Shown here: positions 25,241-55,714 of the stretch, piece after piece
Position numbering within the stretch: the stretch's first letter is position 1
How the letters are laid out: every line of letters starts with the position of its first letter
From: Escherichia coli
GTDB taxonomy: Bacteria > Pseudomonadota > Gammaproteobacteria > Enterobacterales > Enterobacteriaceae
DNA length: 64,000 nt
NCBI RefSeq assembly: GCF_011045215.1
Contig: NZ_CP049201.1
Strand: one strand, 5' to 3'
Program-made: the position numbers and the translations under genes
The notes under the pieces: model-generated
Seen by the model: the letters and a program-made list of their open reading frames with translations, nothing else
Databases searched by the model: none
What the model was told of the DNA's origin: nothing

Positions 25241-25478
25241 AATGGCTCACTCAAGCTTGCTCACGATTGATTCCAGTAACAAACCGTATTGTGTAATTAT
25301 TTCTATAGCAGATCGCTATATAGGCTTGTATACATCGAATAATTTGAAAATCAAAGAGATAGGTAGATTTTCACTCGAAAGTAGTATTACGTGTAAGTGA
25401 GGAGTAATTATTGTTCGGTATCAAAGGGAGACAAAAAAAGCGCCCGCAGGCGCTTTTTAGATTCAGAAAAATTAGGTA

Positions 25479-40106: not shown

Positions 40107-40194
40107 GGTGAGGTGTCCGAGTGGCTGAAGGAGCACGCCTGGAAAGTGTGTATACGGCAACGTATCGGGGGTTCGAATCCCCCCCTCACCGCCA
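40107..40194 (+). tRNA. serW: tRNA-Ser (GGA anticodon, serW-type), 88 nt with long variable arm
   Basis: GGTGAGGTGTCCGAGTGGCTGAAGGAGCACGCCTGGAAAGTGTGTATACGGCAACGTATCGGGGGTTCGAATCCCCCCCTCACCGCCA read directly; coordinates anchored to ORF 40121, which starts at tRNA position 15. Confidence 0.9.
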
Positions 40195-40200
40195 GATTAT

Positions 40201-40238
40201 AAGCGCATGTTATTGTTTAACATGCGCTTTTTTATTTT
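40201..40238 (+). terminator. Rho-independent terminator immediately 3' of the tRNA (approximate)
   Basis: AAGCGCATGTTA-ttgtt-TAACATGCGCTT followed by TTTTTATTTT. Confidence 0.7.
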
Positions 40239-40343
40239 CCCTTTCAGACAGTATGCCATCGGGTATGCCATCTGAAACCGGTTTATATGCCCCGCGATCA
40301 TATCTTATCGGACAATTTCCGATCTTTGAGCATACTGGCAAAG

Positions 40344-41186
40344 CTATACTGCCAGCATATCAGGATAGTGTTTTGCGATAATATCATTCAGTCTGTCAAC
40401 CAGTTCTGGTTTTCTGAACGTGATATGCGCGGAGCCCTTCTTAAAATATCTGATGCTGAACATCTCATCTTCATAGTCCTCTTTACCCTGAACAGACTGG
40501 ATGTGATCATCCAGACGAAGGGTGATGTTTTCCCGGGTGTCGGGGATCGGTTTGCCGCTGAACAGATGCAGCATTCTTTCCAGATCGGCAAGTCTATCTG
40601 CCTGTTGCCCGCTGTTCAGATGAAATCCCCACCGGTCCCATCTCACCAGATTGTTGACGATAATTTTACTGCCAAATTTGCAGGGTGAATTGGTTTTGTA
40701 ATTCCAGCTCAGTCCCCTGAAAACGTTGATCACCCCTCGCTCAAACACTTCATCTTTGTTCTGGTGCAGTTGTTCAAACGTGCTCAGGATATTCGCTTCG
40801 CTGATTTCCGGAAAATTATCGTACTCCAGTGACCGGTACCATGTATCACGGGCTTGTGCATCCATTAATGACAGCATCCCTGAACGTTGCATCAGGTCAC
40901 GCCAGATTTCGCGGTCAAGGTTGCGGGTGATGGCTTTCATTGCGGTTTCCGGTTTCTCCATGAGCCAGCAGCCACAGCGAAAATCCTGTTTCATGGCCCA
41001 GTCCAGTGCGGTTTTACCTCCAATGCTTTCCGTCAGCACCGAGATTTCTGCCAGTTGCCGGATAAGCGTGTCGATTTGCAGCAGTGTACTTTTTCGTACA
41101 GCCAGAATGTGGCGGATACTGGTTGAGCAGATAACGTCCGTATGCCCGTTGACAACTTCCGGACGAGAGGCTGTGATATCAGACAT
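40344..41186 (-). CDS. Hypothetical protein, tentatively DUF4942-like, at the edge of the CP4-like module
   Basis: 280-aa ORF with no recognisable catalytic motif; first island gene after serW. The DUF assignment is from recollection, not a domain search. Confidence 0.55.
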   Translation of the reverse strand: MSDITASRPEVVNGHTDVICSTSIRHILAVRKSTLLQIDTLIRQLAEISVLTESIGGKTALDWAMKQDFRCGCWLMEKPETAMKAITRNLDREIWRDLMQRSGMLSLMDAQARDTWYRSLEYDNFPEISEANILSTFEQLHQNKDEVFERGVINVFRGLSWNYKTNSPCKFGSKIIVNNLVRWDRWGFHLNSGQQADRLADLERMLHLFSGKPIPDTRENITLRLDDHIQSVQGKEDYEDEMFSIRYFKKGSAHITFRKPELVDRLNDIIAKHYPDMLAV

Positions 41187-41282
41187 AATCGATATTCCTT
41201 TTTGCAGATAAATGAAAACGCCAGCCCTGTTCAGGCTGGCGTCAGTGGAATGAAGTCTGGTGAGTGAGATGATGAGTGAAAC

Positions 41283-41480
41283 TCACCGGTTCGGGGGCTG
41301 AAGCTGCAGTTGGCGCAGGGTACGGATATCCTCCCTGGCCTGTTCAATACAGGACAACAGGGCTGTCGAATCCGTTTTATCCTCATCGTTGTCAAAGATA
41401 ATTCCGGATTCACAGTCGATATTGTCCTGCAGCCACGCAATCAGAATATCCAGTGCGGTTTCCGTGGTTAATGATTTCAT
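41283..41480 (-). CDS. Small hypothetical protein (CP4-like module)
   Basis: ORF 41283..41525; the probable start is the internal MKSLTTETALDILIAWLQDN..., which avoids overlap with the upstream gene. Confidence 0.35.
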   Translation of the reverse strand: MKSLTTETALDILIAWLQDNIDCESGIIFDNDEDKTDSTALLSCIEQAREDIRTLRQLQLQPPNR

Positions 41481-41491
41481 GTTGTTCCTGG

Positions 41492-41980
41492 TTACCAGTT
41501 GAAAGTGGGTAAGCCCGGCAGGCATTCAGCGCTGGCATCCAGATGAATGAGACTGACGCCATAACGTCGGGTAAGTGTGACAACCAGACGACGGAACGTT
41601 TTTGACAGGCCCAGGCGCTTAAGCCGCAGAACCGGGTATGACCACGCACCGGTACGTAACAGATATCCGCTACCTGTGAAATGAATCCATTCTGATTCGC
41701 CAGTGTCATTCGTCTGATGTGATAGTGAGTACAGCCAGGCGTTGTCCTTTGCCGTGATATGCGCGGTACTGCAGCGTATGCCGGTCAGGGCCGCAGATGG
41801 TGGCGTGCGCTCTGCTGATGTCCGGTCAGATTCATCAACAACACGAAGGGAGTAGCCATTGTCGCAGGCCACGTTAATCAGTTCAGCGAGATTAACACCA
41901 TCGACGTCAACGACAATGCGCCCCATGTTCAGCGTCTGCACGTTAATACTGTCAGCTTCCAGCGTCAGGGAAAGTTTCAT
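41492..41980 (-). CDS. Hypothetical protein downstream of the cbtA-like toxin (YeeW position in CP4-type elements)
   Basis: 162-aa ORF whose ATG overlaps the stop of the upstream cbtA-like gene (ATGA-type overlap at 41977..41980). Confidence 0.5.
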   Translation of the reverse strand: MKLSLTLEADSINVQTLNMGRIVVDVDGVNLAELINVACDNGYSLRVVDESDRTSAERTPPSAALTGIRCSTAHITAKDNAWLYSLSHQTNDTGESEWIHFTGSGYLLRTGAWSYPVLRLKRLGLSKTFRRLVVTLTRRYGVSLIHLDASAECLPGLPTFNW

Positions 41981-42357
41981 TGTTTCGCCTCCGGATGCTT
42001 ACCCAGGGTAATGTTATTTACCGTTCTGTAATTGTCGCGGGTCATCAGGCCTGTCGCCCGGCGGGCCCGGAGGATATCGATGCTGTTTATTAACTGAGAG
42101 TGGGTACAGGTGCTGAATCCCGGCTGGTCAGTACGCACCAGTGCGTATTTTTCCACGAGAAAGTTCACCGCATCGCACAGTGAAATGCCGGCCTCAATAT
42201 GCTGCTCAATCACACGTTCATCAGCGAACGGTGTGTCATTCAGCGTAAGGCCGTAGTGCTGGTCCAGTAGTCGGGAGAGCAGTGTCTGCCAGATGGTGAC
42301 GGGAGACGGGCTGCGCGATGCCTCCCGTACGTGTGTATCGGGTAATGTTTTCATACT
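41977..42357 (-). CDS. cbtA: CbtA/YeeV-family toxin (inhibitor of FtsZ/MreB polymerisation)
   Basis: ORF 41977..42495; family-typical start at the internal MKTLPDTHVREASRSPSPVTIWQTLLSRLLDQHYGLTLNDTPF, giving ~126 aa. Confidence 0.8.
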   Translation of the reverse strand, partial: SMKTLPDTHVREASRSPSPVTIWQTLLSRLLDQHYGLTLNDTPFADERVIEQHIEAGISLCDAVNFLVEKYALVRTDQPGFSTCTHSQLINSIDILRARRATGLMTRDNYRTVNNITLGKHPEAKQ

Positions 42358-42443
42358 GAAGATTTTCCTGATATGAGAGATTAAATTTTGAGGAGAGTAG
42401 TGCTGTAGCGCACCGGGCCGGAGCAGACGATTATTTCGGTGGT

Positions 42444-42812
42444 TTACTTTTTCGTTTCGGGTGTCGGATAAACAGCCAGATAAACGTAACCACAACTACC
42501 GAGGGTGTCGGCTTTGCAGGTCAGCCCTTTGGCATACAGCGTGACGGTATGCTGATGGCGGGGATTCAGTTCACCGCTGGTGAGCATGAGTTCCAGTTGT
42601 TTCATCAGCAGCGGAAAGGCCTGGTCCAGATGGTACGCATCCGCGTCGCTGAACCGGCCTCTGATACCGGCGCGGTCTGCAAGGTAATGCAACCGGTTAC
42701 CCTCCTGCACCAGACGTGCTCCGAAACAAGGTGTCACGGTACAGGGCAGTCCCCACCAGGGGCGGCCGCGATTGTCGTCGGGATGAGTTGTCTCATGGAG
42801 TGTGTCTGACAC
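42444..42812 (-). CDS. cbeA: CbeA/YeeU-family antitoxin
   Basis: 122-aa ORF MSDTLHETTHPDDNRGRPWWGLPCTVTPCFGARLVQEGNRLHYLADRAGIRG... immediately upstream of the toxin gene. Confidence 0.8.
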   Translation of the reverse strand: MSDTLHETTHPDDNRGRPWWGLPCTVTPCFGARLVQEGNRLHYLADRAGIRGRFSDADAYHLDQAFPLLMKQLELMLTSGELNPRHQHTVTLYAKGLTCKADTLGSCGYVYLAVYPTPETKK

Positions 42813-42886
42813 AATAAAATCCTCACAAAAAATCAGTTAAGAATGGTCCGGTGGCAGCGATAATTCTGCTCATCATTTCTCCTGAC

Positions 42887-43108
42887 TCAGTTCAGAGTGA
42901 CGCTCATCAGCCGGACATACGGGCCAAAACTGTCCTTACGGCGTTCTGCAAACACGGCCAGCACACCGGGAATATCCTGCACTTCACGACCGGTATACGC
43001 CTCAGCACTGCCGTGCCAGCGGTATTTGCCGGTACAGAACGGAAAAAGACGGGATGCAGGATGTTGTTGGTGAATACGCATGGCTTCACCACGGGTGATA
43101 ATTTTCAT
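42887..43108 (-). CDS. yeeT: DUF987 protein (YeeT/YkfH family)
   Basis: 73-aa ORF MKIITRGEAMRIHQQHPASRLFPFCTGKYRWHGSAEAYTGREVQD... Confidence 0.7.
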   Translation of the reverse strand: MKIITRGEAMRIHQQHPASRLFPFCTGKYRWHGSAEAYTGREVQDIPGVLAVFAERRKDSFGPYVRLMSVTLN

Positions 43109-43176
43109 GGTGGGATACCTCTGAAGACAGAAGATAAAAGTGAAAACAGGTGTGATGTGGTTGTGACGGTGACGGG

Positions 43177-43653
43177 TTAAAGCAGACCGTGTTCCGCAAA
43201 GGAGAAAACCTGGTTGCCTCCGACTATCAGATGGTCCGGCACCCGGATGTCCACCAGGGCCAGCGCCTGTACCAGACGTTCGGTGATAAGCCGGTCTGCC
43301 TTACTGGGTGTGACTTCACCGGACGGATGATTGTGTGCCAGCACCACGGCTGCGGCATTGTGATACAGGGCGCGTTTAATCACTTCCCGGGGATGGACTT
43401 CCGTGCGGTTGATAGTGCCGGTGAAGAGGGTTTCACCGGCAATCAGCTGATTCTGGTTATTCAGATACAGCACCCGGAATTCTTCACGCTCCAGTCCCGC
43501 CATGTTCAGAATCAGCCATTCCCGTGCCGCATGCGTGGAGGTGAAGGCCACGCCGGGTTCATGAAGATGGCGGTCCAGGGTTTTCAGGGCCCGCTGAATG
43601 AGACTGCGCTCGCCGGGCGTCATCTCTCCGGGCAGAAAGGAAAGCTGTTGCAT
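43177..43653 (-). CDS. yeeS: RadC-like JAB-domain protein (YeeS/YkfG family)
   Basis: ORF 43177..43668; probable start MQQLSFLPGEM...; JAMM-like HNHPSG motif. Confidence 0.8.
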   Translation of the reverse strand: MQQLSFLPGEMTPGERSLIQRALKTLDRHLHEPGVAFTSTHAAREWLILNMAGLEREEFRVLYLNNQNQLIAGETLFTGTINRTEVHPREVIKRALYHNAAAVVLAHNHPSGEVTPSKADRLITERLVQALALVDIRVPDHLIVGGNQVFSFAEHGLL

Positions 43654-43668
43654 TGCCCCTGCCTCCAT

Positions 43669-44154
43669 TCAGTCGATGATGCGCATAATGGCGCTGCATT
43701 CCGGATGTTGCAGGGCGTAATCCCGCAACCGATAATAATGGACCGTCATGGCATAACACTCCGTACGACAGGCATGATGACTGTACGTCATCAGACAGGC
43801 GGCAATGCCGGCGGCTTCCGGACTCATTTCAGCGCGGTTACCGTTCATGGCATTGAACAGTACCCATGTTTCGTCATCATCGTCATCCGGTTCGGGTGCC
43901 ATAAATGCCCCGCCGTTGTTCAGGGTGTACAGATTCCAGATACCACCGCAGTAGTCTTCGCACAGACGGTCCATCCAGCCGAAGACACGGGGTTCCAGGG
44001 TCACCCACTGTGGAATGAGGCCAAAGTGCTGCGGCCAGAAGCTGATGCGCTGTTCATCAGGGACGGGAGTGGCAACCAACTGAGACTGGTTATTCCCTGA
44101 TGCAGTAGTTACGGAAACAGAAGGTGTGGTGGAGCTATGCGAAAAGGTTGTCAT
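43669..44154 (-). CDS. Antirestriction protein (ArdB/KlcA/YafX-like)
   Basis: 161-aa ORF in the family-typical position between the DUF932 gene and the RadC-like gene; acidic DDDDDE stretch. Confidence 0.7.
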   Translation of the reverse strand: MTTFSHSSTTPSVSVTTASGNNQSQLVATPVPDEQRISFWPQHFGLIPQWVTLEPRVFGWMDRLCEDYCGGIWNLYTLNNGGAFMAPEPDDDDDETWVLFNAMNGNRAEMSPEAAGIAACLMTYSHHACRTECYAMTVHYYRLRDYALQHPECSAIMRIID

Positions 44155-44245
44155 GAGATGATTCCTTATAAAAAGTAAATGAATGGAAGAATGCCTGGGG
44201 ATTGGTACAGACGTGAGTCAGGGCTGCACTTTCAGGGAAACAGCA

Positions 44246-45064
44246 TTAGCGCATGCTCTCCAGCAGCGTTTCTGCCATCACCCACAATGCGCGATTGAGC
44301 TTAATGTCCGTGTCGATGCTGTGAATGGCACGGGTGTGGATACGTTTTCCTTTAGCGCTGCGACCGGAAATTCCGCCTTTCAGCATATTCTCCTGAATGG
44401 TCTGATAAGCACTCCACAGGTCCTTACCGTAATCCTCCCTGCGTCGTGGTGTCAGAATGTCGGCGGTGGTGACGGGCTGATGTTCGTCACCATAACGGTA
44501 AGTCAGTGCCGCCTGTGCCAGCGCCTGGTGTGCCGGTGGCGGCAGAATCAGCGACTGCATGGCATCACGCTTTTCCTCAATCCGGTCAAAAACGCCCACC
44601 ACTTCGTAAGCCCCTTCAATAACTTTCTCCACCACGTCTCCCCGGTGCGGAACACGCACCTCTCCCAGAGACTGACCGCAGACGCACCCGTTCTGACAAA
44701 CGAATCTGAAGTAACCCGGCAGCATCTGGTAGCTGGAGGTACCGTCATGGGAATTGAGCAGGATGATTTCCGGGACATGCTGTCCGTTTATCTCTCCGGC
44801 CCGCCGCAGACGCAGCATGTGTTTGGTATACCCCCGGCGGCCCGGGTCACGTACGCGGGTCTGGCAGGCGAAGAAGGGCTGAAAGCCCTCCCGCTGCAGA
44901 CTTTCCAGCACGGTGATGGTGGGGATATACGTATAGCGTTCACTGCGGGAGGTATGCCGGTCTTCCCCAAAAATACCGGGTACATAGTGCATCAGCTCTT
45001 CATGTGTCAGCGGACGGTCACGGCGTATCTGGTTCGCATAACCAAAACGACTTGCTAATCGCAT
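44246..45064 (-). CDS. DUF932-domain protein (YfjQ/YafZ family)
   Basis: 272-aa ORF MRLASRFGYANQIRRDRPLTHEELMHYVPGIFGEDRHTSRSERYTYIPT... Confidence 0.75.
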   Translation of the reverse strand: MRLASRFGYANQIRRDRPLTHEELMHYVPGIFGEDRHTSRSERYTYIPTITVLESLQREGFQPFFACQTRVRDPGRRGYTKHMLRLRRAGEINGQHVPEIILLNSHDGTSSYQMLPGYFRFVCQNGCVCGQSLGEVRVPHRGDVVEKVIEGAYEVVGVFDRIEEKRDAMQSLILPPPAHQALAQAALTYRYGDEHQPVTTADILTPRRREDYGKDLWSAYQTIQENMLKGGISGRSAKGKRIHTRAIHSIDTDIKLNRALWVMAETLLESMR

Positions 45065-45338
45065 GATCTGCTCCTTATGAATGATTAAGCGGTATAAATG
45101 AAAAAGCCGCAGCTCCCGGAGAAGACGCGGCCTGATGGATGATGTTTATTGTCTGAGGTACCCTTCACGGGCGGGCCACGCATTAAGCTGTTATGACAGC
45201 AACCGCCTGCCCGTATGAGAAAGATCCTTCAGCCAGGACATACTCTGTGTAACCCGGCATATCTGTTTTCTCCTGATAAATAAAAAGCCTCTGCCACGCG
45301 TTGTGACAGAGGCTGAAGCATGAAACTGACTTCAGGGA

Positions 45339-45794
45339 TCAGTTAACGTTTTTTCCGGAAACGGTAATTAGCAGTGGATGGTAGTCCTGGGGATCGAAAA
45401 CCGATAACGGCAGACTGACACGATGGCCGTTACTTTCTTCAGTTGCTTTAATGATTTCGGTTGTGGCGACATTTTCCACGCACTCCGTTTCCAGAAATGC
45501 GTCTGTGGTTCGCGTGGCATCACTGTCACCAAAGGCTTCCGTTTCCATTTTTCTGGTCACCAGCCTCTGACCATATTTGTCTTTGAGTTGCAGAGTGATG
45601 GTGAGGGGGCCAAATCCTTCTCCGTTTCCGCCATTATCCAGCCGGAACTGGTAAGCACAAATATTTCCCGGGAGCCATATCGTATCTGTATTGCGTATAC
45701 TGATGTAACGTTGATCCTGTGCCCGGAGTGGGGCAGACCACGTTAACCCCAGAATGACGCCGGTAATAATGCAGGTTTTGAACAGGTGAATCAT
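45339..45794 (-). CDS. Putative secreted/lipoprotein-like small protein (CP4-like module)
   Basis: 151-aa ORF with N-terminal signal peptide MIHLFKTCIITGVILGLTWSAPLRA. Confidence 0.45.
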   Translation of the reverse strand: MIHLFKTCIITGVILGLTWSAPLRAQDQRYISIRNTDTIWLPGNICAYQFRLDNGGNGEGFGPLTITLQLKDKYGQRLVTRKMETEAFGDSDATRTTDAFLETECVENVATTEIIKATEESNGHRVSLPLSVFDPQDYHPLLITVSGKNVN

Positions 45795-45869: not shown

Positions 45870-48392
45870 TTATGCCGGTAACTCCGGGGGTAATGCTTCT
45901 TCCAGCCGGTTAACCATATTGCCGAGATGGGATGCATCATATTCCATGACGGGGCGTTGCCTGATGATACTGACCACCAGTGGTTTGATTAACATATTGG
46001 TCGCGGCCCGTTGTTGTATACCGGCGGCGAAAATGATCTCCAGAGCATTCTGATCGATAACACGGGCCAGATTCGCGTTCAGATTTTCTGTTTCATGTCC
46101 GGTCAGCAGGAAACTGCCGGCAAGCCATGTCACCTGTTCCTGAATCATTGCCAGAATTTTGACGCGATCTTCTTCAACCAGCGCTCCGGCAATTTTTCCT
46201 GATACAGCGGAGGCAATCATTCCCCCCAGAACACCGCCAACCACACGCCCTGTCAGTGCACCAAATGGTCCCAGTGGACTGAACAGTATCCCGCCCGCCA
46301 CTGACCCGACAGCTCCACCTGCCACACCGGAAGATGCCACGGCAAGATTCCTGATGAACTGCGTACCGGAGATCCGTCCCCGCAACATTTTGATCATGTC
46401 AGGGCCGGTTGTGACAGCTACCAGTGCCAGAGATGTCACCAGCGTACCCTTCATCACTTTGTTCAGGGCACTGATATTTCCTGCACCGGTCCCCTTCTGA
46501 AGAGCCAGTCGGACAGTCGGGCTGGCAGTCGAAAAATCAATGTGCTTCAGCATACCCTGAACAACACTGAGCCGGTGGAGTTGCTGGGTTGTGACGTAGA
46601 CAGCCAGTGTGCGGGTGAAGGTTTTTCCTGCCTGGACAGCAGCTGTCTGCAGAGCAGCATCGCGATCGCCGGTGCTGAGCCAGAAGACCGATGCCGTCAG
46701 GGCAAAACTGATCCCTCCGGCCGCCAGACTGACAACCGAACCCTCGGCAATATCATAAGTGACCGATTCGATGGTCCCGAACCGGGTGATATTACGGGCC
46801 TGAGTATAAGTCAGATGTCCCCGACGAATCAGCCGGGACGCTTCTGCGGGATCGATTACACCGGGTACTTTACCTTCGCGGATCTTATTCCTCATGGTTT
46901 CAACAGCGCCGGCATACTGATCACGGGGGACTTCCAGTTGCATGGGGCCATTATTTCCCATGTAACGATACTGTCCGTTTTGTCCGTCGAATGCCGCACC
47001 GACGCTACGGGCTGCAGTTGAACAATATTTCGTCTGGATTTCTGTTCCGCTGACCAGTCTGTCTGCTCCATTTCTGGCATTATTATCACCGAGGATCCGT
47101 GCGTTTTTCAGACGGATTCTGTCGACAATATGGTTTCCCCGTTCAGCGGCAAACCCATGTCCCTGCCCTCCGGAAGCAAACATTTTCTCATTTGTACTCC
47201 AGGTTTCCGGCAGTTTCATGAGAATCAGACCATTCGCCGTTGCATCGGAAATAAAACTGTTGTAGGGGCGTTCATAAATTTCCTGACACAGTGTTTCTGT
47301 TTCGCGACAAAGAGAGGAGCAGTACCATTCCGGATCCGGCTTATGATTTTCCGGGGCATGATGTACTTCTGTCAGCCCGCAGGAGGCACAGACACGAAGC
47401 TCATCCACGTGATGGAATGATACAAAACGGCGACCTTCTGAAAAGGGATACCAGTCACCGCCGTCCAGGCAACGATCGAGAAAATCGTCATTCGCTTCCG
47501 GTGATAAATTCAGGCGGTTCCGGAAGAGTGTTTTCAGTTCATCAGGTGTGAATGACAGGTTCTCTTTCAACTGTTCGTTAAACCCTGCCATGTTTCTTTC
47601 ATACCAGGCATTGTTCAGTAACCAGTTTCCGTCTGCCAGTTCAAATTCCCTCAGCTCTCCCCGGGAAATCCGTTGAGAAATAAGCGTCAGCCAGATGCGC
47701 TCCGTCAGTGAGTCAGGAAGGCTGTAATCGTTTTGCAAACTGGTCAGCCACGATTTACTGTTGAGCACCGGTTGTTCTTCCAGTGTCTGGCTGATGGCAC
47801 AGGTCAGTTTTTTCAGCGCCTGGATTTGGCTGGCCGCCCATAGCAGCGTCACTAATGCAGCCAGCCAGTACAACAACCCGCCCCACCACATCAGTGACGG
47901 TGAAATATCGTACTGTAACGCGATCAATGGTGCGCATGCAGAACAAGCCATAAGGAAAAAGGCAGTATAAAAACAGCAGTAATATCCGTTAATTTCCTTG
48001 CTGATATCTTCTGGTGTGATCCCGTTCTGCTGAATGTTTTTGATCTGCAGGGGAACAGCCAGCAGACCACCGGCGAGAGCGGTGGTCAGAATAAATTTCA
48101 CGGAGTCAAAGGTGTGAGACTCCAGCGCAATATGTTTACCATCAAGTCCCCACATGAAGCTGATGATCATTCCGGCAATCGTCAGAAATACGCCTGCCAG
48201 CCAGCGAATATGGAACAACCGGGTTATGCGTTCGGTGATATAGCCAGCCAGTAAGGCCGGGCCGAACAGACACAGCAATATGAGCCCTGCCAGCGCAGAA
48301 GCCGTGCTGATTAATGCTCTGAACAAAAGGCGAAGAATGGCAAATCCTGCGATCAGCAGGATCAGCGCGCCGACTATCTGTAACATAGTCAC
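45870..48392 (-). CDS. yeeR: YeeR-like large inner membrane protein
   Basis: 840-aa ORF with multiple TM segments at both ends; located between the Ag43 gene and the DUF932/antirestriction genes as in CP4-44-type elements. Confidence 0.7.
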   Translation of the reverse strand: MTMLQIVGALILLIAGFAILRLLFRALISTASALAGLILLCLFGPALLAGYITERITRLFHIRWLAGVFLTIAGMIISFMWGLDGKHIALESHTFDSVKFILTTALAGGLLAVPLQIKNIQQNGITPEDISKEINGYYCCFYTAFFLMACSACAPLIALQYDISPSLMWWGGLLYWLAALVTLLWAASQIQALKKLTCAISQTLEEQPVLNSKSWLTSLQNDYSLPDSLTERIWLTLISQRISRGELREFELADGNWLLNNAWYERNMAGFNEQLKENLSFTPDELKTLFRNRLNLSPEANDDFLDRCLDGGDWYPFSEGRRFVSFHHVDELRVCASCGLTEVHHAPENHKPDPEWYCSSLCRETETLCQEIYERPYNSFISDATANGLILMKLPETWSTNEKMFASGGQGHGFAAERGNHIVDRIRLKNARILGDNNARNGADRLVSGTEIQTKYCSTAARSVGAAFDGQNGQYRYMGNNGPMQLEVPRDQYAGAVETMRNKIREGKVPGVIDPAEASRLIRRGHLTYTQARNITRFGTIESVTYDIAEGSVVSLAAGGISFALTASVFWLSTGDRDAALQTAAVQAGKTFTRTLAVYVTTQQLHRLSVVQGMLKHIDFSTASPTVRLALQKGTGAGNISALNKVMKGTLVTSLALVAVTTGPDMIKMLRGRISGTQFIRNLAVASSGVAGGAVGSVAGGILFSPLGPFGALTGRVVGGVLGGMIASAVSGKIAGALVEEDRVKILAMIQEQVTWLAGSFLLTGHETENLNANLARVIDQNALEIIFAAGIQQRAATNMLIKPLVVSIIRQRPVMEYDASHLGNMVNRLEEALPPELPA

Positions 48393-48506: not shown

Positions 48507-51356
48507 TCAGAAGGTCACATTCAGCGTGGCCTGACCGTTATAGCCTTCGGCGCTGTTGCCGCTGACACTGTGGGCATAACCGGCCTGAACGCCCAGGGTG
48601 ATATTTTCCCGGACACGGGCTTCCAGTCCGGCCTGCAGGTCCAGTGACGTGCCATTCCGGGACGGTGAAAACGTCATGTTACTGCCGGCGGCGGCTGTAC
48701 CCATGCTCATGTCACCCCGGGAGCTGAAAGTGCGGATAACAGAAGGCTGTACCCACCAGTTCACCGGCAGTTCACTCACACGGTGTTTTGCACTGTCGCG
48801 CAGAGTGTCACGGGATGAGGTGCCTTCGCCAAAAGTCATATCGTTGTGGCTGCCCAGACGGAAGCCGGCACGCACATGTTGTGCACTGCCATGCCCGAAC
48901 TTCACATAACCGGCGTTATCCTGGCCGTCATCCAGGGAGAGCCCCTGCCAGGTGTACTGCAGTTGTGGCTCCAGCATCAGGTTGTCAGTGATACTGAAGG
49001 GCAGACCGGTTTCCAGTGAGCCCAGCCAGCCCCAGCCCCGGGCGCGGAAGTCGTTATTGTCCGATGACGCTTTCATGCTGTGGCGGGTTCCCTGGGCCAC
49101 AATGTCAGCCCACAGGCCGGAGGACGTGTGTACCAGATTCAGGTATCCGCCCAGGCTGCCGGCATCATCCCGGACCGTGCCGGCACGGGAGCCGTCATCA
49201 TCCTTAACATCAACGGAAGAATGGCCAGCAGCACCATACACTCCTGTCGTCAGTGACATACCGGCAACCTCTGTTCTCAGCAGGTCACCCTCCAGACGGA
49301 CGAGGCCATAGCTGCCGCTGCTTTCCGGCGTGGCCCCACGGGCAATACCACCGTTGTTATCGTGCCCGAGATGACCGCCCTGAATGCTGAGACGGACGCT
49401 GTTATTTTCACCGCTTACACCGGTCTGATGGCTGCGGGAACCTGCCAGAATCCGGTCATAGTCCATTGCCTGTGTCAGCATGGAGGCATACAGGGGGACT
49501 TCAGCACGATAAGCATTTTCACTGCGCAGGTACCAGTCTTCATCGCTGTCACGGTTCAGGGTGTAGTTAAAGGCGCCGGCCTGAAGCGGGCGACTCAGGG
49601 CAAACGCACCTTCTTCTGTGGTAGCACCATTCTGTGCATCCACAACCCGGATACCCTGTCCGGAGGTTGCCACCCCGAGGTTACTGTTTCCGACATTTGT
49701 AAACGCAAGCCAGGTTTTGCCGGTTGCCTGACCACCATTAATCACCAGCTGGTCAGAGGCATTACTGCCATCAAGGCTGACACGCATATTGATGGTGCCG
49801 CCCTGGCCGGTGAGGTTCGTGGTGGTTAGTTTATGGAACGTTACCGGGGAGTTACTTTTTGCAACAGCACGGCTCAGCGCGGCATCCGGTGTCGTCTGAT
49901 TATCAAAGTGAATCTCTCCTGCGTTAATAATATCGCCGGTACTGACCACATCACCATTCAGTACCATACTGGCGCCTTTACTGAGCTGTGTTCTGCCACT
50001 CAGACTTCCCCCGGCAGCCAGCGTCAGTGTTCCACGATGTCCGACAGTGGTGTTGCTGGCCAGTCCTCCGGCATTAACCGTAAAGCTGCCGCCATTTTCC
50101 AGCAGCAGGCCGCTGGCCTGACCGGATATGCCATCAATACTGAACTTACCGCTGGCATTGGTCCCCTCAACAGTGGCACCACTGTCTGCAATCAGGGCAC
50201 CACCGGATGTCATGGTGACATCTGTTGCCTTACCACCGGCAGACACTGCCAGGGTACCGCCGTCATCCACCAGTGTTTTCCAGGCTGAATGGCCCTCCAG
50301 TACATCCAGGCGACCGCCGGACTCCAGAACAACGCCGTCAGCCTTACCGTTTTCCACTGTGAAATTCCCCAGGCGGTTTGTGCCGGTGACAGTTGCAGCA
50401 GTACTGGTAACCAGTGCACCGCCCGTGTTCTGGGTGACTGCAGTGGCTTCCCCGCCGGCATGTACCCTCAGTTCACCGTTCTGATTTATGGTGGTGTTAC
50501 CGGCAGCGCCACCGGCCTTAACAACCTGCCAGCCCCCCTCGTTAATTACCGTGTTCAGCGCCAGTCCGTCCTTGTGCACATACTGGTAACCGCCATTCAG
50601 TGTGGTATTCAGGGCCCTTCCGTGTACCGACTGGTCACCACCTGCGTAAATGAGAGTGTCACGGGCTATCCCGGAAGATAAGATAATCTGCCGTCCATTT
50701 TTGTTGATGGTGGTGGATTCTGCTGTTCCCTGGACCTTCTGACCCGTGTACGAGTTGTCAGAATCCGGGCCGCCTTCTGCGCCGGTGTTGATGATGGTTC
50801 CTGTTGCCAGCCCGCCACTTTTAACGCTCTGGTAACCGTCGCGGTTGATAATTGTACCGGTGGCAACCCCGCCCTCATGAACCCACTGCTCGCCTCTGTT
50901 ATTCAGCGTGGTGTTCACCGCCAGCCCGTTCAGGCTCTGTCCCCCGCCGTCACGAATAACCGTATCACTGGCTGTTCCCCCCTCCAGCACGACCTGACGA
51001 CCATTTGTGGTGACAGTGGTGTTTCCGGCTATCCCGCCATTCTGTATCCATTGCCCACCGGTGTTTTCTTCACTGTCCGGCCCCAGTTCCAGCCCGGTAC
51101 TGATGGTCATTCCGTTGGCCGTACCGAGGACAATCTGGTTGTCATGATTTGTCAGTGTTCCGCCGCTCATGGTTTCTCCCGCCTGTACAACCGTGTCAGC
51201 AGCCAGTGCCGGGACTGACGTGACAGCAGCAAGAGACAGCGCAACCGCCACACCGGTGCGTTTTCCCCGTGAGCGGGCCAGTTCGGAGGCCACCACCAGG
51301 GTGCCCGTAATGTGATTCCATACCAGCCTGTAGCTGGTGTTCAGATGTCGTTTCAT
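48507..51356 (-). CDS. flu: Antigen 43-type self-associating autotransporter adhesin
   Basis: ORF 48507..51431; real start at the internal MKRHLNTSYRLVWNHITGTLVVASELARSRGKR (extended autotransporter signal peptide); passenger repeats; C-terminal beta-barrel ending ...GYNGQATLNVTF. Confidence 0.9.
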   Translation of the reverse strand: MKRHLNTSYRLVWNHITGTLVVASELARSRGKRTGVAVALSLAAVTSVPALAADTVVQAGETMSGGTLTNHDNQIVLGTANGMTISTGLELGPDSEENTGGQWIQNGGIAGNTTVTTNGRQVVLEGGTASDTVIRDGGGQSLNGLAVNTTLNNRGEQWVHEGGVATGTIINRDGYQSVKSGGLATGTIINTGAEGGPDSDNSYTGQKVQGTAESTTINKNGRQIILSSGIARDTLIYAGGDQSVHGRALNTTLNGGYQYVHKDGLALNTVINEGGWQVVKAGGAAGNTTINQNGELRVHAGGEATAVTQNTGGALVTSTAATVTGTNRLGNFTVENGKADGVVLESGGRLDVLEGHSAWKTLVDDGGTLAVSAGGKATDVTMTSGGALIADSGATVEGTNASGKFSIDGISGQASGLLLENGGSFTVNAGGLASNTTVGHRGTLTLAAGGSLSGRTQLSKGASMVLNGDVVSTGDIINAGEIHFDNQTTPDAALSRAVAKSNSPVTFHKLTTTNLTGQGGTINMRVSLDGSNASDQLVINGGQATGKTWLAFTNVGNSNLGVATSGQGIRVVDAQNGATTEEGAFALSRPLQAGAFNYTLNRDSDEDWYLRSENAYRAEVPLYASMLTQAMDYDRILAGSRSHQTGVSGENNSVRLSIQGGHLGHDNNGGIARGATPESSGSYGLVRLEGDLLRTEVAGMSLTTGVYGAAGHSSVDVKDDDGSRAGTVRDDAGSLGGYLNLVHTSSGLWADIVAQGTRHSMKASSDNNDFRARGWGWLGSLETGLPFSITDNLMLEPQLQYTWQGLSLDDGQDNAGYVKFGHGSAQHVRAGFRLGSHNDMTFGEGTSSRDTLRDSAKHRVSELPVNWWVQPSVIRTFSSRGDMSMGTAAAGSNMTFSPSRNGTSLDLQAGLEARVRENITLGVQAGYAHSVSGNSAEGYNGQATLNVTF

Positions 51357-51573
51357 CAGCTTTTCCTTACAGAGGGTGAATAAAAAAGCCGGTACCCACA
51401 AATGTGGATACCGGCAGGTACAAAACAGCATGGTCAGATAAAGTGGTTTTTCCCGGACATAAATGCTTCCCCTCTCTCATCCGCCAGAGAAGTATCAGTC
51501 CGTTGTGTGCAATTCCGTTCTGCATGATGAAGAGATTCAGCTGCCTTTTCGCAGGCCATTAACCACTACAAAC

Positions 51574-51609
51574 GATCGATACTAACGATCGATACCTGTT
51601 TTATCGATC
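51574..51609. promoter_or_regulatory. Ag43 phase-variation switch: three closely spaced GATC sites in the putative OxyR operator (approximate)
   Basis: aaacGATCgatactaacGATCgatacctgttttatcGATCgtttt lies ~220-250 bp upstream of the flu start codon. Confidence 0.75.
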
Positions 51610-51727
51610 GTTTTATTCTATTGATAGCAGGGCAGTCACGCAAGAGAAACAGGAGGGTATGAGGGGTTTGTATCATGTTTTCAGTTGGTTAACGCAATGT
51701 AATCAGGCATTTCCCCTGGCAGAGTGT

Positions 51728-53251: not shown

Positions 53252-54276
53252 ATGTGTGTGATTCATAGACATCGTTTCAATTTTCTCAGCTCAAGTTCAA
53301 GCTTGTAATTCTGTTCCTGAATATGCTCCTTATTGGGCTGATAGCTTGCGTGAACGGCATCCGAGTATGGCGTTTTCTCAGCAAGTTCAAAGTAGCGCTC
53401 CATCGGCGTTTTACCGTTGTGAGCGCAATGAGGACGTTCCCAGTTATAGTAATGCTGCCATTCTGCCAGTCGCTCCTCCAAGTTATCAGTAGCGATATCT
53501 ACGGTAGCGTAAAACTCAGCTTTGTCTGTCTTTTGGGAGCGTTCAACTTTGCCATTAAGATGGGGTGATGCTGGTTTATTTGGACGAAACTTGATGCCGT
53601 ATTCTTTCAGTCTTTCCTGCACCTTAACGGCAAAAAACTCTCTTCCCCGGTCTGTCTGAAAGCGCTGAATCGGGAACGGCATTTCTTCAATAAAACAATC
53701 AATGAAATCCAGTGTGTTTGTAGTCGTGCGACGGGAATAGAGCCTCAGAACTCTGTAGCGAGTGCAATCATCAACAGATGTGTACTGATATAAGCCGGGG
53801 CCAATTTTACAGGTATCCATCTGAACCCAATCACCGGGAACAGGGCGTTCGTAGCGAATGAAATCAGCTTTACGCCGGAGTTTAACAACAGGTTTAACCT
53901 GATTCTGGCAAAGAACTTTGTGGATTGTTGCCATTGCAAGTGAGATTGAATGAAGTCGTTTTAACTCGCTTTGAATCCGTCTTGCACCCAGATTTCGCTG
54001 GGAACGTAACTCCAGAATCAGAGCGACTTCGCAAGTGCCGGTTTTCGTTGATGGCGAACGCTTAGGGCGACGGCTGTGGCTTTCCAGACCAGCGATGCCC
54101 TGAGCCAGATATCTGCGCCACCATTTACGCAATGTGGGGCGGGAAATACCGCAGCGACGGCATACGAACCCCGCGTCACCAGACGTTTCATAGAGTTTTA
54201 CCCACTGTAGCCGCTGCTGAATTTCCCTGTTCATAGTAAGGCATTATAGTGAAACGATGTCTATGAATCACACAAG
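53252..54276 (-). mobile_element. Compact ~1.0 kb insertion sequence with one DDE transposase gene and ~24-bp perfect terminal inverted repeats (tentatively IS481-like)
   Basis: Terminal repeats TGTGTGATTCATAGACATCGTTTC and its reverse complement flank the transposase ORF; family assignment is tentative. Confidence 0.75.
53263..54234 (-). CDS. DDE (rve-type) transposase
   Basis: 323-aa ORF with N-terminal HTH (CGISRPTLRKWWRRY) and an integrase-core-like central region. Confidence 0.85.
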   Translation of the reverse strand: MNREIQQRLQWVKLYETSGDAGFVCRRCGISRPTLRKWWRRYLAQGIAGLESHSRRPKRSPSTKTGTCEVALILELRSQRNLGARRIQSELKRLHSISLAMATIHKVLCQNQVKPVVKLRRKADFIRYERPVPGDWVQMDTCKIGPGLYQYTSVDDCTRYRVLRLYSRRTTTNTLDFIDCFIEEMPFPIQRFQTDRGREFFAVKVQERLKEYGIKFRPNKPASPHLNGKVERSQKTDKAEFYATVDIATDNLEERLAEWQHYYNWERPHCAHNGKTPMERYFELAEKTPYSDAVHASYQPNKEHIQEQNYKLELELRKLKRCL

Positions 54277-54598: not shown

Positions 54599-55714
54599 TT
54601 ACTGCATCAATACGGTAGCTATCGCACTGCCAGAAAACGATCCAGCATCAATTCTGTTTGTATCTATAACCCTATATTGTGACGTTATATCAAATGTTCT
54701 ACTTCCACTGATAACCCCCGAAAATTCCTTCGCACCATCAACAGTCAATGTGCACTTTCCATTATCTCCACATCGAGTTACATTCCCCCCTTCCCCTGAT
54801 ATTAGATTACTACCTTTAATGGTTATATCTACTCTGGTTGGTGAACTGCAATTAATCACTAATCCGGCCTTAGCAAAGTGTCCATCACGAGCCTGGGCTG
54901 ATGTTATTGCATTATGATTTATTGATATATCTTTATTCCCTGCTATATTACAGGATGCCAGAACATTCACTCTTACAGGGGCATATCTGTTCTCCATATT
55001 AACTACTGCAGACTCAACACCCCCACCATCAGAACAATATTTTTCCCCCTTATACCATTCCTCAGATCCTATTTTTAGCGGAATGTTTAAATCATATATT
55101 CCGGCTAAAGCACTGCCCCTCTCTATCGTTACCCTCAATTTGGTACTCTGAAAGTTGTTATATACCAGAGGATATCTGTATCCCGGGACAATTTCTCCTT
55201 CTGGGAATGGTCTGTCATACCAATCATAGTTATCATAAACACCAACGTAAGTCTGATAACCATTATAAATACCACGTTTATTATACCCCCCGGAAATAAT
55301 CTGAATACTCCCTTTCAGACCATTACCCAATCGTATGTTATTACTATCAACTGGCATCGCAATCCATGTTGCCTGACTCTTTGAGCCTTTACCCGAAAGA
55401 ATCTTAACCGGCGAGCTAACAGGCACATTATGACGCTGGACCCAGCTAACAACTGCAGACGTTCTTGGTGCCAGACCGGGCAATACAATATCAAAATAAC
55501 TTGCTGTGTTTCCTGAGGAAATTGTTACATCCGGAATAGTAACATTGTTACCATCTAACTGCCACAATATTTGCATATCACGACAAGGTTCATATGCAAA
55601 TGAACAACCTGATATAAAAACAAAAAGATAAATTATTTTCTCACACCACATACCTTTCACACCTTGTATATCCCCAGACCAGAAAATCCCTGAGCGCATA
55701 AATAACCCTCTCAC
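54599..55714 (-). CDS. Putative secreted lipoprotein, beta-rich, unknown function
   Basis: 371-aa ORF; likely start at internal MWCEKIIYLFVFISGCSF (lipobox ISGC; start ~55651); Gly/Ser/Asn/Tyr-rich; AT-rich codon usage unlike the core genes. Confidence 0.6.
   Translation of the reverse strand: MRGLFMRSGIFWSGDIQGVKGMWCEKIIYLFVFISGCSFAYEPCRDMQILWQLDGNNVTIPDVTISSGNTASYFDIVLPGLAPRTSAVVSWVQRHNVPVSSPVKILSGKGSKSQATWIAMPVDSNNIRLGNGLKGSIQIISGGYNKRGIYNGYQTYVGVYDNYDWYDRPFPEGEIVPGYRYPLVYNNFQSTKLRVTIERGSALAGIYDLNIPLKIGSEEWYKGEKYCSDGGGVESAVVNMENRYAPVRVNVLASCNIAGNKDISINHNAITSAQARDGHFAKAGLVINCSSPTRVDITIKGSNLISGEGGNVTRCGDNGKCTLTVDGAKEFSGVISGSRTFDITSQYRVIDTNRIDAGSFSGSAIATVLMQ

Follow-up and report, generated by a model that had tools for sequence, protein, structure and literature searches.

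A CbtA/CbeA-family toxin-antitoxin gene pair in the distal module of a CP4-44-like integrative island of Escherichia coli

The window analyzed in this study is a 64,000-nucleotide (nt) stretch of Escherichia coli contig NZ_CP049201.1 (RefSeq assembly GCF_011045215.1), and the subject is a toxin-antitoxin gene pair of the CbtA/CbeA (YeeV/YeeU) type at positions 41977-42812, where a preliminary description of the sequence had placed it; both genes proved to lie on the minus strand (Table 1). The two genes are complete, adjacent and in the same orientation with the antitoxin first, and each has its own ribosome-binding site: a GAGGA Shine-Dalgarno sequence precedes the GTG start of the antitoxin gene and an AGGA sequence in the intergenic spacer lies ahead of the toxin ATG. 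The list of open reading frames (ORFs) gives a longer toxin frame of 172 amino acids (aa) opening with a TTG codon at 42495, but the start of the toxin gene is the ATG and not this TTG, as the ATG yields a product of family length and has the AGGA sequence upstream. The 122 residues first reported for the antitoxin stand, while the toxin, put at about 126 residues, actually has 125. The toxin stop codon overlaps the start of the next ORF, as had been noticed, in an ATGA junction in which the toxin TGA (41979..41977) shares two positions with the following ATG (41980..41978); this next ORF encodes a 162-aa DUF5983 protein. Compared with the K-12 spacer, the spacer between the antitoxin and toxin genes is divergent in its 5' two-thirds and conserved in its last ~25 nt. 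Its RNA folds no better than shuffled sequences (z=-0.09; the K-12 spacer gives z=-1.4), and Rfam revealed no RNA family within the pair.

The family membership of both products was established by Pfam. The antitoxin matches CbeA_antitoxin (PF06154, E=1.2e-54, 183.4 bits with the cut-off at 27), its residues 18-117 aligning to model positions 1-100 of 101, and the toxin matches CbtA_toxin (PF06755, E=6.3e-61, 203.7 bits with the cut-off at 25) over positions 1-112 of 112; because both matches span whole models, the pair is not a chance resemblance. The size and place of the toxin also fit the CbtA family, whose members have about 105-125 aa and are encoded immediately 3' of a CbeA-family gene on the same strand. 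The exact toxin sequence exists in NCBI as WP_164475869.1 under the name "TA system toxin CbtA family protein", the exact antitoxin sequence as WP_164475870.1 under the name "type IV toxin-antitoxin system YeeU family antitoxin", and the GenBank entries of the two proteins are adjacent (QIF14412 and QIF14413); a contig look-up with the exact antitoxin protein gave no record, and an NCBIfam scan of the module proteins returned nothing for the pair. With full-length Pfam matches and the NCBI names of identical proteins in agreement, the CbtA/CbeA assignment made in the preliminary description is upheld. Aligned with its K-12 homologs, the toxin shows 90% identity to CbtA, 58% to YkfI and 62% to YpjF, and the antitoxin shows 92% identity to CbeA, 63% to YafW and 66% to YfjZ. 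Antitoxin residues 1-121 match the YeeU crystal structures 2H28 and 2INW (E~1e-76) and the protein also matches the YfjZ structures 2JN7 and 2EA9 (E~2e-42); no relative with a solved structure was found for the toxin. The pair is thus an already known entity, a routine, annotated member of a well-characterized family.

The closest of the K-12 systems is CbtA/CbeA from CP4-44, which shares with the present locus the GTG antitoxin start, a spacer of about 89 nt, the ATGA overlap with yeeW, the upstream genes yeeS (RadC) and yeeT (DUF987), and toxin residue F65. The lengths are nearly the same (toxin 125 versus 124 aa, antitoxin 122 in both), whereas the haplotype differs at toxin residues 6-23, including S15 in place of R15, and at antitoxin residues 6-16. 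The other two K-12 systems, YkfI/YafW (CP4-6) and YpjF/YfjZ (CP4-57), belong to the same two Pfam families, occupy modules of the same gene order and keep F65, and in CP4-6 the toxin end likewise adjoins a tRNA gene (thrW). Unlike the present pair, they have a spacer of about 20 nt and are not followed by DUF5983; their toxins and antitoxins are only 58-62% and 63-66% identical to those studied here; YafW and YfjZ lack the 14-residue N-terminal extension of the antitoxin, and YkfI and YpjF lack the ~12-residue C-terminal tail of the toxin. Relative to K-12, cbeA has a ratio of nonsynonymous to synonymous substitution rates (dN/dS) of 0.19 and cbtA one of 0.24, and both genes are under purifying selection. 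In the toxin gene this constraint is concentrated in the core, codons 29 to the end giving a value of 0.06.

It is proposed, with high confidence, that the window carries an intact CbtA/CbeA toxin-antitoxin pair, located in the conserved distal gene module of an integrative island of the CP4-44 type, and that the pair would act as it does in K-12. K-12 CbtA binds both FtsZ (H6/H7 loop) and MreB, each independently of the other; FtsZ binding is lost in CbtA, YkfI and YpjF upon F65S substitution, MreB binding is lost in K-12 CbtA upon R15C substitution, and the toxin with both changes is no longer toxic (PMC5624674). CbeA binds FtsZ and MreB, which it bundles, and does not bind the toxin (as summarized in PMC6521040 and PMC5371832), and we found no work since 2018 that overturns this type IV model. 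By homology, the 125-aa toxin should bind the H6/H7 loop of FtsZ via a surface that includes F65, which is conserved, and would probably also bind MreB; with division and elongation blocked in this way, over-expression would be expected to give swollen, lemon-shaped, non-growing cells. The 122-aa antitoxin is predicted not to sequester the toxin and instead to bundle FtsZ and MreB polymers, thereby counteracting the toxin at its target. Our confidence in the FtsZ half of this mechanism is good, and that in the MreB half is lower.

Several observations weigh against this proposal. The K-12 MreB determinant R15 is replaced by S15 in the toxin, with R14 adjacent, and codons 1-28 of the toxin gene evolve fast (dN/dS 0.62); these two features make the MreB half of the mechanism uncertain. 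CbtA of Erwinia amylovora, which belongs with its CbeA to the same Pfam families as a validated toxin-antitoxin pair and shares about 63% identity with E. coli CbtA, retains F65 as well as R15 and yet showed no yeast two-hybrid binding to FtsZ or MreB; it is not toxic in E. coli and causes filamentation only, that is, elongation rather than the lemon shape (PMC6521040), so the target is not guaranteed by family membership. Finally, a promoter scan found no sigma-70-like promoter on the coding strand of 40200..45400.

The first three of these observations favor a rival reading in which the toxin has a narrower or different target: its N-terminal variant (S15 and the divergent residues 6-23) would no longer bind MreB and would act on FtsZ alone, with filaments in place of lemon shapes, or it would have some other target as proposed for Erwinia CbtA. 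The contrast in constraint between the N-terminal 28 codons and the rest of the gene, and the fact that R15C alone is sufficient to abolish MreB binding in K-12 CbtA, both point that way. Close E. coli relatives of the N-terminal haplotype carry C15. Against a changed target, R15 is also absent from YkfI and YpjF, YpjF with C15 still binds MreB, and C15R has no effect in YpjF or YkfI (PMC5624674), indicating that position 15 is no general, family-wide determinant; moreover, the toxin shows few differences from K-12 CbtA from residue 24 to the end, and the FtsZ and MreB of the host are those of E. coli. A narrowed or altered target is therefore considered quite unlikely, and binding to FtsZ and probably also to MreB is retained as the preferred model.

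The antitoxin side of the model is informed by the best match of the pair, a copy in E. coli GXU-23-25-310 (NZ_CM171611.1) whose DNA is 98% identical across the pair. The two copies encode the same toxin protein, and the differences over the aligned 921 nt lie nearly all in the first 28 codons of the antitoxin gene and just upstream of its start. The divergent patch corresponds to antitoxin codons 6-28 (window 42730-42800), and from this pattern the 5' end of the antitoxin gene reads as a recombination mosaic. An identical toxin accompanied by a different antitoxin N-terminal haplotype would fit an antitoxin that does not need to match its toxin residue for residue. It thus speaks against a type II-like arrangement in which the antitoxin neutralizes by binding the toxin directly and not via the cytoskeleton, as does the finding that the three K-12 antitoxins cross-neutralize the three toxins although the non-cognate ones are only 63-66% identical to CbeA (PMC5371832); in that study the operon was also not autoregulated. 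Direct toxin binding gains some room from the small number of K-12 studies on which the type IV model rests and nothing from the present analysis, and we regard it as very unlikely compared with counteraction at the cytoskeletal target.

The gene coupled to the toxin deserves separate consideration. DUF5983 is here full length at 162 aa, while K-12 YeeW is a 64-aa stump of it, and the K-12 experiments therefore never had an intact copy of the gene. This leaves room for a three-part unit in which the translationally coupled DUF5983 protein modulates the toxin or antitoxin, for example by tuning toxin activity or release, the two-gene picture from K-12 being incomplete as the K-12 copies have DUF5983 truncated or missing. 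The ATGA overlap present here and in K-12 also occurs as a 4-nt toxin/DUF5983 overlap on a Klebsiella plasmid whose toxin is only 66% identical, and the association of CbtA with DUF5983 has already been noted in surveys (PMC10790755; bioRxiv 10.64898/2026.06.09.728211, a 2026 preprint). An AlphaFold2 (AF2) model of DUF5983 built from a cleaned 26-sequence alignment after a library-wide search was confident, with a predicted local distance difference test (pLDDT) score of 85, in place of a first model from a shallow 12-sequence alignment that was unusable (pLDDT 54). However, the predicted fold has no solved analog, and neither fold nor sequence offered a clue to function. Furthermore, the K-12 pairs without an intact DUF5983 act as complete toxin-antitoxin systems (PMC5624674, PMC5371832), and each gene is found without the other. 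CbtA homologs without DUF5983 are ykfI, ypjF and one on an Enterobacter plasmid; among the distant DUF5983 genes that have no CbtA gene beside them, one shares 4 nt with a DUF3085 gene upstream of it and another adjoins DUF932 and a relaxase gene. The idea that DUF5983 is an obligate partner of CbtA was accordingly rejected; on the gene neighborhoods compared it is a frequent CbtA neighbor. A functional three-part unit appears rather improbable to us, and we retain the two-gene toxin-antitoxin system; the role of the toxin-coupled DUF5983 protein is a question general to the family and not special to this locus.

The DUF5983 family is small: a set of 1.84 billion proteins contains 209 of its representatives at the 50% identity level. 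Matches in the giant proteins P0276 and P0292 were rejected as compositional similarity caused by a repeated Asp/Gly-rich motif (read in P0276). In the rare proteins P0126 (279 aa) and P0062 (196 aa), each from a single contig, the N-terminal part of CbtA is fused in frame to DUF5983; these fusions, which could be counted in favor of a functional link, are probably deletion products or assembly errors.

The surroundings of the pair agree with the CP4 order that the preliminary description had recognized, namely DUF932, antirestriction, RadC, DUF987, antitoxin and toxin; Pfam on each ORF returned this order, and it is the same in CP4-57 and CP4-6 (Table 1). The RadC-like ORF has 163 aa compared with 158 aa in the annotated homolog of the closest complete-genome copy, and for the DUF957 gene, a longer 80-aa ORF gave no Pfam match at E<=0.001. 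The last island gene ends 150 nt from the tRNA-Ser gene that serves as integration site, downstream of cydC-aat-infA, a flank 99.9% identical to E. coli; the CP4-44 locus of K-12 is a different site. On the K-12 map this position is the serW site. The pair can be used as an annotation anchor that marks where a CP4-44-like island at a tRNA-Ser gene has its distal end.

Table 1. Features of the distal island module and its integration site in the 64,000-nt window.
Feature	Position	Strand	Length	Remarks
cbeA/yeeU-family antitoxin gene	42444..42812	(-)	122 aa	GTG start; stop included; Pfam PF06154
Spacer between antitoxin and toxin genes	42355..42443	(-)	89 nt	From sequence reading
cbtA/yeeV-family toxin gene	41977..42354	(-)	125 aa	ATG at 42354; stop included; Pfam PF06755
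DUF5983 gene	41492..41980	(-)	162 aa	Full-length YeeW homolog; ATG overlaps toxin TGA (ATGA)
DUF932 gene	44246..45064	(-)	272 aa	YfjQ/YafZ homolog; Pfam PF06067, E=1e-51
Antirestriction-family gene	43669..44154	(-)	161 aa	LfgA/YafX homolog; Pfam PF03230, E=2e-37
RadC-like JAB-domain gene	43177..43668	(-)		YeeS/LfgB/YkfG homolog; Pfam PF04002, E=3e-45
DUF987 gene	42887..43108	(-)	73 aa	YeeT/YpjJ/YkfH homolog; Pfam PF06174, E=5e-40
DUF957 gene	41283..41480	(-)	65 aa	100% identical to WP_000839263.1 of NZ_CM171611.1, named DUF957 domain-containing by NCBI
Terminator-like hairpin	41217..41243	(-)		After DUF957 gene; 11 bp, 7 GC, T-run; consensus scan only; possible 3' end of transcription unit
DUF4942 gene	40344..41186	(-)	280 aa	Pfam PF13708, E=2e-69; last island gene before tRNA
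tRNA-Ser (GGA)	40107..40194	(+)		ARAGORN, Rfam; integration site of island

In GXU-23-25-310 the module (NZ_CM171611.1 10131-15086) has the same order, DUF4942-DUF957-DUF5983-CbtA-CbeA-DUF987-RadC-antirestriction-DUF932, and is likewise separated from the tRNA by 150 nt, but the tRNA gene concerned is the second one for tRNA-Ser(GGA), located beside ghrA, and the cargo beyond DUF932 differs; evidently, both tRNA-Ser(GGA) genes serve as sites for the element. Of 5,426 complete E. coli genomes, 4,928 (about 90%) contain similar DNA, at a median of 3 and a maximum of 13 places in each. CbtA homologs were detected in 66 of 72,556 plasmid records, 34 of the 66 being conjugative, and in only one of 50,697 phage records, that one a 3.2-kb fragment. 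Given this near-absence from phages and presence on plasmids, the label "cryptic prophage" for this module seems to reflect history and not biology. On a Klebsiella IncFIB/HI1B plasmid, DUF932, antirestriction, RadC, DUF987, YeeU, CbtA, DUF5983 and DUF957 follow one another in the same order as here.

The pair is probably transcribed together with its neighbors: terminator-like hairpins at 45314..45286 and 41243..41217, both consensus matches only, flank the eight genes from DUF932 to DUF957. The lack of a promoter-like site on the coding strand can also be read as a sign of silent cargo, that is, an intact but barely expressed selfish or hitch-hiking module with no host role beyond possible stabilization of the island. 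Such a view is compatible with the redundancy of copies within genomes, with the low toxin expression and deletable antitoxin genes of K-12 (PMC5371832), and with the failure to match known defense-system models, as PADLOC-DB 2.0 gave no match (E<=0.001) for the toxin, the antitoxin or seven neighboring gene products. It is less easily reconciled with the strong purifying selection on the toxin core, with a gene order conserved across genera, and with the deletion phenotypes in oxidative stress and biofilm reported for K-12 (PMC5371832). We judge silent cargo to be unlikely and favor a pair that functions as in K-12.

The island as a whole goes beyond the K-12 reference element. Upstream of the module, between yeeR and DUF932, lies a homolog of IrmA (interleukin receptor mimic protein A; 45339-45794 (-), 151 aa, Pfam PF18673, E=1e-38), and a strong terminator-like hairpin, the one at 45314-45286, follows it. 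The yeeR ORF (45870-48392 (-)) encodes 840 aa, of which the first 507 are 99% identical to K-12 YeeR (510 aa); it has no Pfam match and only weak matches to PADLOC PDC-M09B. Since the full 840-aa ORF has YeeR as its start, K-12 YeeR looks truncated, and the 3' part of yeeR appears to have been lost from CP4-44 along with irmA, DUF932 and the antirestriction gene, all of which are kept here together with a full-length yeeW. Next comes an Ag43-like autotransporter ORF (48507-51431 (-), 974 aa) with AIDA, autochaperone and beta-domain. Directly upstream of it and slightly overlapping it is an Rfam IS102 RNA match (51375-51611 (-), 74 bits), a position of this IS102/IsrC-type small RNA (sRNA) that is the same as that of isrC upstream of flu in K-12. 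A YeeP-like GTPase gene is found further into the island. The presence of IrmA, the 840-aa YeeR, the Ag43-like autotransporter, the sRNA and the YeeP-like GTPase therefore identifies the island as a fuller version of K-12 CP4-44.

A few further features of the window were recorded. Deeper in the island, at 53263-54234 (-), 60208-61029 (+), 63009-63758 (-), 56798-57730 (-) and 57834-58475 (+), lie genes for two rve-type transposases, an IS21-type IstB protein, an EAL-domain protein and a regulator of the AraC family. The 371-aa ORF at 54599-55714 matched nothing in Pfam or NCBIfam. Opposite the RadC, antirestriction and DUF932 genes run two long stop-free antisense ORFs, 43189-44100 (+) of 303 aa and 44183-45058 (+) of 291 aa, which are probably an artefact of codon composition. 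In the core-genome part of the window, the enterobacterial sRNA STnc130 has a full-length match at 25331-25465 (+) with 140 bits.

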